Assembly: GCA_965221445.1 (NCBI GenBank) | Contig: CBDCSF010000004.1 | Location: 5,556 to 69,555, forward strand | Origin: Paracoccaceae bacterium | GTDB taxonomy: Bacteria > Pseudomonadota > Alphaproteobacteria > Rhodobacterales > Rhodobacteraceae | Length of the DNA stretch: 64,000 bases | Reading direction: 5' to 3' | Part shown: in pieces, positions 59,809-63,309 of the stretch | How positions within the stretch are numbered: the stretch's first letter is position 1 | Layout: every line of letters starts with the position of its first letter | Made by a program: the position numbers and the translations under genes | Notes under the pieces: generated by a model | The model's database searches: none | What the model was told of the DNA's origin: nothing | The model's input: only the letters and a program-made list of their open reading frames with translations

Positions 59809-60993
59809 GTGATTCATATCTTGCCAGACAGTCGAAAACGACCGGGTTTCAGCCTGCCTGCAACGGCTTTGGCCATAGTGGCGGGAAGTCTCGTGTTGGT
59901 CAACTGGCTCAATTGGCAGAACCGGATGGATCTGGAACATCAGGCCCATGCCACTGCCGATGCCATTTCAGTACTGGCGGCAGCTCTTGATCATTATGCC
60001 CACCTGGAACTGCAACTGGCTACCCCCGTGGTTTCGGACACCTGGCGAGAATTGACCGGTAGTGAGATCATGACCTTTCGTTCCCATTCGGTTACACCAC
60101 CCTGGCTGGACCCTGGTTATGATGATCTGACAAGTGCCTGGGACATACACTATCTGGTTTATTACCCGGCCGGCTCAATCCATCCCTGGACGATTCTCAA
60201 TCTTGAACCATTGGGGGAAACAATACCCGGGCTGGTCAACCGCATCAGGAACCAGTTGGCCGGTCGGTATCCAGCTCTTGTATCTGGTGGTACCAGCTCG
60301 GTCCGGCAGGGATTTACCGATAATGTCAGGGTGCTTTCCGGTACCATACGCGGGAGCATGCCTGATACCCAAGATCTGGTATTTTTCACCTGGCCGATGT
60401 CGGGTATCAATCCGAACTGGTTGCCCAGAGTTGAACGGGCAGGGGTTTCCCCTGGAGTCATGGCGACTGATCTTGATTTTTCCGGTACCCATGACCTGAC
60501 TGGACTTGCCACCATCACGACCGATACCATGCAGGCCAGTGGAGATCTTTCTCCTGGTGCTGCAAGTACCCTTGTGGTTTCAGATATGGTGGTTAGAGGA
60601 AATGGAACGGTCACTGACATGACTGTCAATGGTGTAGCGTCGGTTGATGGCATCCAGACCATAACCGATCTGACCAGTCAGGAAATGCTTCAGGTTGACA
60701 CCCTGACAGCCGACTCTTCCCTTCAGGCCCTGCGGGGTGTTATGGCGGAAGCTGATATTGAGGGAAATTTGCGGGTTACAGGAAACCTGACGGCTTCCGG
60801 AACGTCTTTTGAAGTAGATGGTGATGTCCAGGTTGCCAATGGCTTTGGTCGAACTCTCGATCCTGGCATGAATCTCGTTTTTGATTCCCTTCAGGTCAGG
60901 GGGTTTTACCAGGTTGATGATGATGCGACCGTCCAGACGGTAACCATTACCGGTTCCGGAACCTGTATCGGATGTCAGTTCAGTGCCTATTGA
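59809..60993 (+). CDS. PilV-like minor pilin / tip adhesin, paralog 1
   Basis: RPG-FSLPA prepilin-like N-terminus. Shared block MATDLDFSGTHDLTGL. Beta-helix-like C-terminal repeats ending GTCIGC. Confidence 0.6.
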   Translation: MIHILPDSRKRPGFSLPATALAIVAGSLVLVNWLNWQNRMDLEHQAHATADAISVLAAALDHYAHLELQLATPVVSDTWRELTGSEIMTFRSHSVTPPWLDPGYDDLTSAWDIHYLVYYPAGSIHPWTILNLEPLGETIPGLVNRIRNQLAGRYPALVSGGTSSVRQGFTDNVRVLSGTIRGSMPDTQDLVFFTWPMSGINPNWLPRVERAGVSPGVMATDLDFSGTHDLTGLATITTDTMQASGDLSPGAASTLVVSDMVVRGNGTVTDMTVNGVASVDGIQTITDLTSQEMLQVDTLTADSSLQALRGVMAEADIEGNLRVTGNLTASGTSFEVDGDVQVANGFGRTLDPGMNLVFDSLQVRGFYQVDDDATVQTVTITGSGTCIGCQFSAY

Positions 60994-62149
60994 TAGAGGG
61001 TTTGTCAGAAATTGCCGGCAGGGGAGTAAGGGCAAACGTCCAGGTTTCATGCTTGTTGATATTGTCATGTGGACGATTGTGGGAACGACAGGTCTTCTCT
61101 TCATGGTTCAGTATCTTGAGATTTATGTCAATCAGACCAATGTCCAGGCAGAGGCCCGACTGTTGTCTGCCCTGGCTGATCATGCTGCCGATGAAGCCCT
61201 CCTCACCCTTTCGGAGGAGATTGCCGATGCCATCAGTGCCGGTGGTGCCAAGCCGATCACCATAACGGACCTCAATGCCTATGATCAATTGCCGATCCTG
61301 CCACGTGATCGGGATATTCATCTTGTTCATTTTGCTACGAATGCCCAAACTCTCTGGGTTCTGGCCTATACAACCGGAAACGATGCCGGGACTCCACGTC
61401 CGGCCAGTGGCATTGTCAATCTTGGCGTAATCGATCATGATGGACCCTGTTCCACAGCCGAAATATGTGGACCGGGTCTTCGGTGGAACCATACAGGCCT
61501 CACTTCCCTTCTGACATCACCCCCAACCGATGGATCAATGGTTGCCCTCCGTCTGTTGGATGCCGATCCGGATAGTGATTCCTTCATCTGGAGTGTTGAT
61601 ACAGGAAATGCAGCTCGTACCACCATGACCACCACTCTTGATCTTGCCGGCCATGATGTTGTAAATGTCGGTGATGTGGCAGCCCGGACGATTGTTTCCC
61701 AGACGACACTGCAGGTCCTTGGGAGTACCGAAGTGGTCCGCCTTGACGGATCTTCAGCTGTCAATCCTATACTGGTTACAGGGGATCTCAATATCAATGG
61801 TACCCTGACAGCAGCCGACATGGAAAGTGGCATCCACGACATGAATGCCAATAATGTCAGGGTTGCCAACGACATTGATGCAAACAGAATAACTGCAGCT
61901 GGCAGGATGACCATTGAAGGTAACATGATAGTGACGTCCAATCTCACGACCCCAAAGTTTACAGGTGACGTTACGGCCAACACCATGACCATGGTGAAAC
62001 TGGATGCAGCCAGGACAACTGTGGATGGCGACGTCATTGTCAATCGGGCAACCACCGGTGATCTTGATCTGGATCCGGGACAGTTGACAGTGCAGGGTAT
62101 TCTTTATGTCAACCGCTGTGTCGGTACGGGCTGTACCGTTGGTCCCTAG
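60983..62149 (+). CDS. PilV-like minor pilin / tip adhesin, paralog 2
   Basis: RPG-FMLVD N-terminus. ICGPGLRWNHTGL and TTTLDLAGHDVVNV. C-terminal repeats ending CVGTGC. Confidence 0.6.
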   Translation: MPIDRGFVRNCRQGSKGKRPGFMLVDIVMWTIVGTTGLLFMVQYLEIYVNQTNVQAEARLLSALADHAADEALLTLSEEIADAISAGGAKPITITDLNAYDQLPILPRDRDIHLVHFATNAQTLWVLAYTTGNDAGTPRPASGIVNLGVIDHDGPCSTAEICGPGLRWNHTGLTSLLTSPPTDGSMVALRLLDADPDSDSFIWSVDTGNAARTTMTTTLDLAGHDVVNVGDVAARTIVSQTTLQVLGSTEVVRLDGSSAVNPILVTGDLNINGTLTAADMESGIHDMNANNVRVANDIDANRITAAGRMTIEGNMIVTSNLTTPKFTGDVTANTMTMVKLDAARTTVDGDVIVNRATTGDLDLDPGQLTVQGILYVNRCVGTGCTVGP

Positions 62150-62160
62150 GAGGGTTACGG

Positions 62161-63309
62161 ATGAAAGGGGGAAGATTTATCAGATGGTTGCGATTCAGAC
62201 ACAGACTTCATCGTCGGCCTGGTGTCTCATTGATTGAGGCTGCCTTTTCCATGGTTATAATCGGTCTTGCCCTTACCCAGGGCATCGGACTGGTAACCGA
62301 TTACACTGCCGATCGAGCCCTACAGGCAGAAGCCCGCATGCTGACAGCTGTTGCTGATGATTATGCCGAAATGGTTGCACGAATCTGGCCACCTGCCATT
62401 ACCCAGGGTAGGGTAACGACCTATACGCCACCGGATCATATCGGGCTGGAAACTCCCTTTGGTCGTGCCATTCGGATTGCCCATCATGCACCATCCGCAA
62501 GGGAGCTGGTTGTCATGGTCTACACCTGGTCAGCTGACCGCCGAACCAATCGAAAACCGACTCCCAGATATGATTCCGATATTCGCCAGGTCGGACATGT
62601 TACCGGTCCCGATGATCGATGTGCCCAAAATCATATTTGTGGTTTTGGCATGGACTGGAATGCTTCTCCCCTATTGACCCTGTTGGGAACCAATGGACCT
62701 GATGAGGAAGATCTGGTTGCCCTCCGGTGGGTTACCATGGATCGCCATGTTTACCCCTACCTTCATCGGAACCGGATGGCTGGTCATCCTGACCTCAACC
62801 GACTGGAAACCGATCTGAACATGGGTGGCCATGATCTGGTTGGTATAAACTCCCTATCCGGTGCCAGATTGCTGGTTACCGACAGTCTTGATATCGGTGG
62901 TGAGTTGGAGATTACCGATTTGGAGATAGCAGGCAATCTTGATATCGGTGGTAATCTTGTGTCAACAGGTTCACTCAATGTTGCCCTGATGAGTGCTTCC
63001 GACATTGCCTCCATCGTCAACCTTGATGTCGAGGAACAATTGGAAGCGGATGAGGTAATCATTGAGGATGATTTCACGATCAATGATGTCCAGGTAACGA
63101 CGGATGTCGAGATGACAGGGACATCTGGCGTCACTGTTACAGGTACCATTCATGCCAATGAAGCTGACGTGGATGAACTTGATATCTCGGGGAATCTGAA
63201 TGGTGCTGTCCTTGATTATGAGGGGAGAGCGACAACCCTCTCCCGGGTAAGAACGAGGGACATGATCATTGGTGAATTGACAGTAACGAATAATTGCCAC
63301 GGGTGCTGA
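62161..63309 (+). CDS. PilV-like minor pilin / tip adhesin, paralog 3
   Basis: RPG-VSLIE N-terminus (Glu +5). ICGFGMDWNASPL and LETDLNMGGHDLVGI. C-terminal repeats ending NNCHGC. Confidence 0.6.
   Translation: MKGGRFIRWLRFRHRLHRRPGVSLIEAAFSMVIIGLALTQGIGLVTDYTADRALQAEARMLTAVADDYAEMVARIWPPAITQGRVTTYTPPDHIGLETPFGRAIRIAHHAPSARELVVMVYTWSADRRTNRKPTPRYDSDIRQVGHVTGPDDRCAQNHICGFGMDWNASPLLTLLGTNGPDEEDLVALRWVTMDRHVYPYLHRNRMAGHPDLNRLETDLNMGGHDLVGINSLSGARLLVTDSLDIGGELEITDLEIAGNLDIGGNLVSTGSLNVALMSASDIASIVNLDVEEQLEADEVIIEDDFTINDVQVTTDVEMTGTSGVTVTGTIHANEADVDELDISGNLNGAVLDYEGRATTLSRVRTRDMIIGELTVTNNCHGC

Follow-up and report, generated by a model that had tools for sequence, protein, structure and literature searches.

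The window analysed here, a stretch of 64,000 nucleotides, covers the pilus region of a Dot/Icm-type (MPF-I), IncI-like conjugative element that carries a PilN-PilP-PilQ-PilR-PilS operon together with a peptidase. All genes described lie on the + strand. The operon encodes a PilN-type type IVb pilus secretin (52183..53862; NCBIfam TIGR02520 PilN, E=1.2e-24; Pfam Secretin, E=4e-5); a 516-aa product without a family match (53819..55369), taken to be a pilus assembly protein from its PilO position between the secretin and the PilP-like gene, a position that it holds in all related loci; a PilP-like protein (55366..56334) identified by a weak match to NCBIfam pilP_fam (E=0.0068) and by conserved position; a PilQ-type assembly ATPase (56282..58072; Pfam T2SSE, E=5.5e-46) that matches the pil ATPase of IncI-type plasmids by tblastn; a PilR-type platform protein (58077..59144) with a weak match to Pfam T2SSF (E=0.0026) and a position conserved in all loci; and a PilS-type major pilin (59149..59805; Pfam PilS, E=7.5e-8; Bundlin, E=3e-4) with the signal RKG/YTMLE and Glu5 (here and below, a slash follows residue -1).

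Directly 3' of pilS, in the place that pilV takes in a type IVb thin-pilus operon, lie V1 (59809-60993, 394 aa, GTG start), V2 (60983-62149, 388 aa, GTG start) and V3 (62161-63309, 382 aa, ATG start), three complete head-to-tail genes of which the first two overlap by 11 nt. An earlier note made from the sequence had described such a tandem array, and its coordinates and lengths proved exact. The trio is followed by X (63326..63637), a conserved secreted protein of ~100 aa with a signal peptide and invariant YQ..L and Cx9C motifs, which is found 3' of the last V gene throughout an alignment of 11 loci and matched no family or structure in Pfam and PDB searches; PilM was considered as its identity and set aside, the comparison with PilM of pY89 being not significant. 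Last comes Y (63634..64000, running past the window end), a short PilU-like prepilin peptidase (Pfam Peptidase_A24, E=0.004) whose orthologue in locus L012 is weakly annotated Peptidase_A24. Gaps around the trio measure 3, -11, 11, 16 and -4 nt, and predicted promoters and terminators are not in excess there; because the genes are so tightly packed, co-expression of V1, V2 and V3 is likely. Megablast of the 56-64 kb segment gave no match in plasmids or E. coli genomes, and V1 found no tblastn match among plasmids; on these comparisons the element is without a close annotated relative.

Each V product begins with a class III signal (basic leader, Gly at -1, hydrophobic alpha1N), and translation bears out the earlier reading of the +5 residue as A, D and E in V1, V2 and V3. 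V1 is a PilV-derived minor pilin without an acidic +5 (KRPG/FSLPATALAIV), V2 carries Asp5 (KRPG/FMLVDIVMW) and V3 carries Glu5 (RRPG/VSLIE, at greater length RRPG/VSLIEAAFSMVIIG). The internal blocks previously taken to be common to the trio are only partly so: T.LD..GHD is present in all three in variant forms (TDLDFSGTHDL, TTLDLAGHDV, TDLNMGGHDL), whereas ICG.G..WN is found in V2 and V3 and not in V1, which has no Cys at that site. Similarly, the CxGC/CxxxC ending assigned to every copy fits V1 (CIGCQFSAY) and V3 (CHGC), but not V2, whose end (CVGTGCTVGP) contains the Cx4C motif CVGTGC. A head-domain Cx5C pair occurs in V2 and V3; in V1 this pair is absent and the terminal CxxC pair contains the only cysteines. 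The repeat string quoted in support of beta-helix-like C-termini was located in V3, and a weak periodicity of ~6/11/17 residues marks the C-terminal regions and not the N-domains.

Paralogy of the three genes is apparent from pairwise BLASTP (V2-V3, E=2e-20; V1-V2, 6e-5; V1-V3, 7e-6) and from profile comparison with hhalign (V2-V3, 99.8%; V1-V2, 96.6% over 321 columns; V1-V3, 97.1%), and on these scores they are true paralogues rather than chance look-alikes, with an identity of 22-26% within the trio. The relationship to PilV is graded. Against PilV profiles, hhalign returned 98.6-98.8% for V3 (E about 1e-16), 93.6-95.9% for V2 and only 0.4-1.6% for V1, which also has no Pfam or NCBIfam match and lacks the hallmark block of the homologous constant region, YL(Y/H)R..G.P(D/E)LN(R/K)M.T.(L/I)(D/N)MGG. 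Among the relatives recovered with the V3 profile, 55 of 91 are Shufflon_N proteins (best E=2.5e-81), and all tblastn matches listed for V3 (20 of 149 records) fall on annotated pilV genes. Judged from profiles, V3 and V2 are distantly homologous to the constant region of PilV. The PilV-type label given in the earlier note to the whole trio therefore holds for V3 and V2 by profile-profile comparison only and fails for V1 as a direct match, the tie of V1 to PilV being transitive, through V2 (96.6%) and V3 (97.1%). The Shufflon_N search that had been put forward as a check did not succeed at the Pfam threshold: a direct scan with PF04917 matched V3 alone (E=0.042, 13.8 bits against a cut-off of 27.5 bits) and gave none for V2, and the remaining Pfam/NCBIfam matches of V1-V3 (TamB, Bactofilin, Qn_am_d_aII) are sub-threshold noise. 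Pfam and NCBIfam models largely miss the wider V family, which comprises 744 cluster representatives at E<=1e-3, almost unannotated; C(T/S)GC is the typical C-terminal ending among the relatives examined. Public gene calls often clip the signal peptides of this family, and the prepilin signal is kept in V orthologues after start-codon correction. A literature search returned nothing relevant on tandem type IVb pilV paralogues or on Shufflon_N.

The absence of a recombinase gene and of sfx-like repeats, as first noticed from the sequence, was confirmed by searches in which a control shufflon was readily detected. A tblastn search with the Rci of pKHSB1 (self-control, 761 bits) over the whole window and 14 related loci, the latter including 6-10 kb flanks, gave best E values of 3.6-6.2, and no scanned ORF matched Phage_integrase; looking beyond the V genes for rci, as the earlier note had advised, thus turned up nothing in the window or in the related loci with their flanks. 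Within 58-64 kb the best inverted pairs were 29 nt at 76% or 15 nt at 93%, none above chance, whereas the same settings recovered six sfx pairs at 92-100% in the pKHSB1 shufflon. A search for the sfx core gave one match (3 mismatches), where chance alone would give 1.6. Alternative C-terminal segments that lack an N-terminus and lie in both orientations were not found at the locus, which holds three complete + strand ORFs. By these sequence searches, the V trio is not a shufflon.

It could still be argued that the trio belongs, as a set of segments, to an inversion system that is cryptic or has decayed, with a recombinase encoded beyond the window or of a different class, such as a serine invertase, given that the window stops 700 nt past V3 and that Resolvase genes of roughly 200 aa lie 3-6 kb downstream in loci L003, L006 and L008. 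We regard this as very improbable. The V genes are complete, have their own signal peptides and keep the same orientation on one strand across all 11 related loci, the inverted repeats stay at chance level under conditions that recover control sfx sites, and the Rci probe is negative in the window and in the flanked loci. Resolvase is moreover missing from the sequence stretches of L001, L002, L004, L005 and L012, and in the window none adjoins the homologous AAA gene; a serine invertase was accordingly rejected as part of the system, Resolvase being near some related loci and not all.

The order V1-V2-V3-X-peptidase is conserved in eight independent loci whose identity falls as low as about 30%; L014, one of the eight, is broken off within V1 and its fifth gene is not classified, and L012 carries peptidase Y. 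Orthology is strictly 1:1:1, with bit scores of 218-600 within a class against 20-87 between classes. The +5 residue of V1 is A, M, I or L in 7/7 loci (W, L001, L002, L005, L006, L008, L012), and that of V2 is Asp and that of V3 Glu in all six loci with a parsed signal, L012 being left out of these two counts as its V2 and V3 signals are unparsed. Cysteine patterns, the C-terminal Cys motif among them, are likewise particular to each class, and the domains that were measured scarcely vary in length (N-domain 195-206 aa, C-region 165-175 aa). Conservation across loci is 41-43% for C-regions, a little below the 48-54% of N-domains and close to the 47% of PilS; the V C-terminal regions are not hypervariable and change at about the pace of the rest of the operon. 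The V1, V2 and V3 clades follow the same locus branching order in a neighbour-joining tree (drawn without support values), and neither gain nor loss nor gene conversion among the paralogues was seen in the eight loci. More distant relatives are doublets, consisting of one V1-like and one V2/3-like gene. A profile scan with alignment A2 recovered only the L001 contig, an uncultured Gammaproteobacteria MAG.

These data bear directly on the view that V1, V2 and V3 are three independent, co-expressed alternative adhesins, each able to cap the pilus (for example as a homotrimer) and together providing three recipient specificities without inversion. Known PilV variants do serve as alternative adhesins and determine the range of recipients (PMC9045228), all three V products have complete prepilin signals and full-length C-regions that differ strongly between paralogues, no shufflon is present, and gene number does shift over long time scales, from doublets to triplets. 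Nevertheless, strict 1:1:1 orthology in a fixed order across eight loci, free of gain, loss and gene conversion, is not what such a repertoire would lead one to expect; nor are C-termini that are not hypervariable. The consistently non-acidic V1, Asp5 in V2 and Glu5 in V3 indicate different structural roles, and V1 has lost two further features, the Cys pair of the head domain and the hallmark block of PilV. We consider three separate adhesins unlikely, at the level of a minority reading that deserves attention, and retention of all three genes is in itself compatible with it. The hard-wired, possibly co-expressed repertoire proposed in the earlier note thus stands as regards the pilV position, the lack of a shufflon and the likely co-expression; the diversification attributed to it does not agree with the fixed gene order and non-hypervariable C-regions.

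An AF2 model of V3 built from 91 sequences (pLDDT 84.4) predicts a pilin fold, with the alpha1 helix at residues 22-74, joined to a region of long beta strands; an earlier run with 10 sequences (pLDDT 49.7) was set aside. Such a pilin head with very long beta strands plausibly fits a fibre that needs partner chains. Foldseek comparison of this model with the PDB, CofB, TcpB and GspIJK included, gave no structural neighbour at E<=0.001, and comparison with BFVD found nothing significant. The weak viral Foldseek matches are mostly to tail-fibre or baseplate proteins, which we record as a hint only, and a PDB sequence profile search gave only a weak tail-fibre match (E=0.0035).

An ancient trio in fixed order, with class-specific +5 residues and C-terminal motifs and an ordinary pace of change in the C-regions, presents the pattern of three non-interchangeable subunits. 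We therefore propose, with about even confidence, that V1, V2 and V3 are obligate, non-interchangeable minor pilins that most likely form one heteromeric, assembly-priming and adhesive tip complex. Tip complexes of type IV filaments are capped by a subunit that lacks Glu5, and those of type IVb pili (CofB, TcpB) are trimers of a minor pilin (PMC10191384, PMC13533445); the placement of PilV on its pilus is still not known (PMC9045228). We infer that the three go back to the PilV tip adhesin of those type IVb thin pili that serve in conjugation, and they would have diverged anciently. The V genes would be co-transcribed with PilS, and the short prepilin peptidase Y, whose gene follows closely, would process their products. 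V1, without an acidic +5, would be the first, apical (capping) subunit, and V2 (Asp5) and V3 (Glu5) would dock below it through a salt bridge of the usual kind between the +5 carboxylate and an N-terminal amine. The beta-repeat C-regions, roughly 170 residues each and matched in length, could then lie side by side in a tip fibre closed by the terminal Cys pairs, and this fibre may contact recipient cells in liquid mating. A non-acidic +5 is in itself no proof of a cap role, because the PilV of Yersinia ruckeri pYR4 has Ser5 and in L016 even the major pilin is without Glu5.

A different division of labour would leave the role of tip adhesin to a single V protein, V3 being the likeliest candidate as the closest to PilV, with V1 and V2 in other jobs such as priming or shaft decoration and no 1:1:1 complex. 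The stepwise PilV similarity (V3 98.8%, V2 about 95%, V1 none directly) would agree with this, as would the doublet loci, which get by with two genes, and minor pilins along the shaft are known from type IVa pili (PMC10191384). However, all three proteins share a C-terminal repeat region of equal length and a terminal Cys pair, suggesting a common structural context, and the established model predicts poor shaft incorporation for a pilin that lacks an acidic +5 (PMC10191384). We judge a lone adhesin improbable.

The V locus was compared with the nearest known systems. One of these is the PilV of IncI1/IncI2 plasmids with its Rci/sfx shufflon (R64 and TP114, with pKHSB1 compared here), which likewise lies 3' of pilS in a type IVb operon of MPF-I type; its constant region is homologous to the V genes, and adhesion in liquid mating is presumed for both. 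Unlike the IncI shufflon, the V locus is without rci, sfx repeats and swappable C-terminal cassettes, and in place of a single pilV it has three full genes with beta-repeat C-termini that close in a Cys pair. Its operon also differs from that of IncI in having the peptidase after the V genes and the extra protein X, and in having no lytic transglycosylase between pilS and the V genes. The shufflon-less PilV proteins (PilV2 of PAPI-1/pKLC102-type elements, such as pY89, and that of Y. ruckeri pYR4) are likewise fixed, with no DNA inversion, and one of this single-gene type is the best direct V3 match among the matches listed (E=4e-5). They are encoded by one gene of about 458 aa and lack a C(T/S)GC-type C-terminus; V loci, by contrast, have two or three paralogues, each about 385 aa long. 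To our knowledge, the cases studied all have one pilV gene, whether or not a shufflon is present.

CofB and TcpB (of CFA/III and TCP) resemble the V proteins in being type IVb minor pilins in which beta-rich C-terminal domains follow the pilin domain, and they form a tip-located, assembly-initiating unit of three subunits (PMC13533445, PMC10191384, PMC5207764). That unit is a homotrimer from a single gene, whereas V denotes three paralogues, known here from their genes, for which a trimer is proposed; no sequence or fold similarity between CofB/TcpB and the V proteins was detected. GspI-J-K and PilI-J-K, which form heterotrimers that initiate assembly in T2SS and type IVa pili, are likewise adjacent, distinct minor pilin genes with one Glu5-less cap (PMC10191384). 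As in GspHIJK/PilHIJK, the V trio consists of co-encoded, distinct minor pilins of which one is without Glu5. Homology of the V proteins to GspI/J/K or PilI/J/K was not found with Pfam, NCBIfam or Foldseek, and unlike those sets the V proteins descend from one PilV-like ancestor and have long C-terminal extensions.

As to how such a tip might have arisen, we tentatively suggest that a single-gene, presumably homo-oligomeric PilV tip was replaced through two duplications by a hard-wired heteromeric tip of PilV paralogues, a route that we think possible and would not yet favour. The first duplication would have given a Glu5-less, V1-like cap and a body subunit, that is, the doublet of some loci, and the second would have split the body subunit into V2 and V3 to yield the triplet. 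Three beta-repeat arms would then share a common fibre, which the terminal CxxC-type motifs would clasp or redox-lock, X perhaps assisting.

PilV is the recipient-choosing part of IncI-type mating pili, and its architecture consequently bears on plasmid host range. A conserved PilV set with two or three members, of which one lacks Glu5, provides a concrete and testable model of the thin-pilus tip and links the single-gene trimeric tips of type IVb pili to the tips that other type IV filaments build from several genes. The heteromeric tip, if real, would be a counterpart of the homotrimeric CofB/TcpB tips; if the proposal is true, it would represent a natural intermediate between these and the heterotrimeric GspIJK/PilIJK tips, and would show how tip complexes diversify by subunit duplication.

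The window is a Dot/Icm-type (MPF-I, IncI-like) conjugative element encoding DotM, DotI/IcmL, DotH/IcmK, a TrbI/DotG-like protein, a coupling protein, and a DotB/TraJ-like ATPase, together with a topoisomerase, primases, and several ankyrin-repeat proteins. No DNA-level similarity to its 56-64 kb stretch was detected in PLSDB plasmids or complete E. coli genomes, and several large transfer-region ORFs (449-1020 aa; 4009-6378, 15149-16741, 23897-26959, 42706-44121, 48453-49802, and 50770-52152) had no Pfam match. Its type IVb thin-pilus operon encodes a PilN secretin (52183-53862), a gene assigned to the PilO position by its placement (53819-55369), a PilP-like protein (55366-56334), a PilQ ATPase (56282-58072), a PilR platform protein (58077-59144), a PilS pilin (59149-59805), and, near its end, three tandem PilV-like minor pilins on the + strand: V1 (59809-60993, 394 aa), V2 (60983-62149, 388 aa), and V3 (62161-63309, 382 aa). 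These are followed by X, a secreted protein of 103 aa (63326-63637), and Y, a short Peptidase_A24 prepilin peptidase (63634 onward) that continues past the window end. Spacing from pilS through V1, V2, V3, and X to the next gene is tight (3, -11, 11, 16, and -4 nt), and promoter-like and terminator-like sites occurred at chance frequency only.

An earlier note had read the V genes as three full pilV-type genes forming a hard-wired adhesin repertoire in place of a shufflon. The ORF check reproduced its coordinates and lengths exactly, and each product opens with a basic leader whose last residue is Gly; a hydrophobic stretch comes next, and the fifth mature residue (+5) differs among the three (A in V1, D in V2, E in V3). 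The ICG.G..WN block, thought common to all three, is present in V2 and V3 and missing from V1; of the proposed CxGC/CxxxC termini, that of V2 proved to be Cx4C, not CxxxC. Although only 22-26% identical, the three are true paralogues, as judged by BLASTP (V2-V3, 2e-20; V1-V2, 6e-5; V1-V3, 7e-6) and hhalign (99.8%, 96.6% over 321 columns, and 97.1%, respectively).

Kinship with PilV was evident for V3 and V2 by profile-profile comparison, while V1 matched no PilV profile. Against PilV of pY89 (PAPI-1-type), pYR4, and IncI1, V3 scored 98.6-98.8% (E ~1e-16) and V2 93.6-95.9%. Taken literally, the expected match to Shufflon_N, the Pfam family of the PilV constant region, failed, as V3 alone was matched, below the Pfam threshold (E=0.042). 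A tblastn search of plasmids with V3 matched 149 records, the best 20 of which all lay within genes annotated as pilV (best E=4e-5, V3 residues 21-270), and an exhaustive V3-family profile search returned 744 cluster representatives at E<=1e-3. Of the full-length representatives, 91 in number, 55 belonged to Shufflon_N (best E=2.5e-81), 13 gave a hit to Bactofilin, a family of beta-helix repeats, and a single one carried the trimerisation-chaperone domain Peptidase_S74. The PilV hallmark block YL(Y/H)R..G.P(D/E)LN(R/K)M.T.(L/I)(D/N)MGG is shared by PilV and V3 and degraded in V2 and V1; a C(T/S)GC terminus occurs in many V3-family relatives.

No tyrosine recombinase family was matched by any scanned ORF in the window, and tblastn with Rci, the shufflon recombinase of the IncI1 reference pKHSB1, gave no hit in any reading frame, either in the window or in 14 related loci. 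Inverted pairs at 58-64 kb were at chance level, and the core of the sfx shufflon repeat was no commoner than in shuffled sequence; with identical settings, the genuine shufflon of pKHSB1, used as a positive control, yielded six sfx inverted-repeat pairs (19-25 nt, 92-100%). Since the V genes are also complete and unchanged in orientation in all related loci, a cryptic inversion system behind them is very unlikely. Single shufflon-less PilVs are already known (PAPI-1-type pY89, pYR4), whereas the window and its relatives have two or three PilV-derived genes; no account of PilV paralogues in tandem in type IVb pili turned up in the literature.

Few close relatives exist: 5-10 for each protein among 5.8 billion clusters. 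The order PilS-V1-V2-V3-X, followed by Y (a short, Peptidase_A24-like membrane protein) where the contig reaches that far, was found in the window, L001 (= L011, Gammaproteobacteria MAG), L002-L004 (Paracoccaceae MAG), L005, L006/L007, L008, L012 (a 556-kb contig, ~30-34% identity), and L014 (a short contig truncated inside V1, with an unclassified fifth gene). All-against-all bit scores separate three orthologue groups (218-600 within class; V2 versus V3, 49-87; V1 versus others, <=47), to which the L012 and L014 genes were assigned by class HMMs. After correction of truncated public gene calls, the V1 +5 residue was A, M, I, or L in 7/7 loci, with +4 usually Pro; it was Asp in V2 and Glu in V3 in the six loci with a parsed signal, the L012 V2/V3 signals being left out. 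V2 and V3 carry a Cx5C head-domain pair and a terminal pair, and V1 only a terminal CxxC. Public calls start the window's V1 (59809; P0011, called at 366 aa) and a number of its orthologues and those of V2 too late, by 13-28 codons, which removes the prepilin signal (V1 at L005:7654, L006:7654, and L008:7618; V2 in L005 and L006); a conserved RPG|(F/L/I)SLP... motif lies in frame upstream of these starts.

Domain lengths are nearly constant where measurable (N-domain 195-206 aa; C-region 165-175 aa). Mean pairwise conservation was 41-43% in C-regions versus 48-54% in N-domains, compared with 47% for PilS, 54% for PilR, and 62% for PilQ; the C-regions keep pace with the pilus machinery, and cassette-like hypervariability is absent. 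That the three act as independent, co-expressed adhesins broadening recipient range, as the earlier note proposed, suits this ordinary C-terminal divergence, the strict orthology, and the class-specific features less well than the tip complex proposed below, and we consider it possible but less likely; a division of labour among them outside any defined complex appears less likely still.

More distant loci (L013, L015, L016) have a doublet, PilS-a-b-X; 'a' resembles V1 and its +5 residue is not acidic, and 'b' resembles V2/3. In a rough neighbour-joining tree without support values, V1 grouped with 'a', and V2 and V3 were sisters, joined next by 'b' of L013 and L015, with L016 b outside; locus branching order was alike inside each clade. 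Duplication of a single PilV gene likely gave rise to 'a', lacking Glu5, and to the body subunit 'b'; the latter likely duplicated later into V2 and V3, and the set has likely co-diverged with the pilus machinery since. At L016:4278-7116, neither the major pilin (RG|LTLFG) nor either of the V-like genes has an acidic +5 residue; this is unusual in a type IV pilin set and makes Glu5 less secure as a universal rule for the lineage.

The AF2 model of V3 (91-sequence alignment; pLDDT 84.4, pTM 0.70) predicts an alpha1 helix (22-74), a beta-sheet head to about residue 192, and unusually long beta strands across 231-345 (e.g. 266-301), with the final ~40 residues of low confidence. It had no significant neighbour among PDB and BFVD structures, and PDB sequence and structure searches yielded no solved relative of the family. 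A weak periodicity of ~6/11/17 residues marks the C-terminal ~170 residues of the V proteins and is absent from the N-domains. The V3-type C-terminal repeat unit also recurs in 5-16 copies in very large non-pilins (P0070, 1643 aa; P0127, 2890 aa; P0129, P0153, P0157, P0160, and P0169), and is thus apparently a general fibre or adhesin module.

X always follows the last V gene, in triplets and doublets alike (window 63326-63637; L001:11166-11480; L012:9208-9528; L013:9134-9601; L015:6525-6854; L016:7110-7418). At ~100 aa, it carries a Sec-type signal peptide, a Y-Q..L motif, and two Cys (Cx9C), the motif and both Cys being invariant, and it had no match in Pfam, NCBIfam, or PDB; a 19-residue likeness to PilM of pY89 was not significant. 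X could be a chaperone or tip-associated partner.

Several ankyrin-repeat proteins are encoded in the window (35339-36160, 44343-45413, and 45907-47559), and others flank L001 and L006. They may serve the Dot/Icm-type system as cargo or effectors, and their presence in the element and its relatives suggests that the carriers live in association with a host, as symbionts or inside cells. A large AAA_14/ATPase_2 gene (window 18443-20122, - strand) has no resolvase ORF beside it; such a gene is paired with a ~200-aa Resolvase at L003:17245-19645 and L006:14277-16663 (adjoining) and L008:16485-20027 (~1 kb apart). A DUF5131 protein (E=8e-93) lies near the pil operon in the window (47539-48315, - strand) and at L005:13051-13815.

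Type IV filament tip complexes are capped by a Glu5-less subunit, and type IVb pili have fewer minor pilins in place of the HIJK set, for example the CofB trimer found at the tip (PMC10191384). Given these known complexes and the conserved V pattern, the best explanation, to which we give roughly even chances, is that V1, V2, and V3 form a heteromeric complex for the tip and for initiation. Its three subunits, PilV-derived, non-interchangeable, and always co-inherited, would bear C-terminal beta-repeat arms of equal length with Cys pairs at their ends, and one of them always lacks an acidic +5 residue; V1 would be the cap, V2 and V3 would dock beneath it, and the arms would form the recipient-binding fibre. 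Against this cap logic, some single PilVs (pYR4, Ser5) and the L016 major pilin also lack Glu5.

The conjugative type IVb pilus is of a known kind; a conserved set of two or three PilV-derived subunits with X as putative partner protein is a new variation on it, and gives a specific, testable model of how the mating-pilus tip could be built. The tips solved for TCP and CFA/III consist of homotrimers, each locus having a single minor-pilin gene (PMC13533445); the V set may link tip complexes of this homotrimeric type with heterotrimeric ones.
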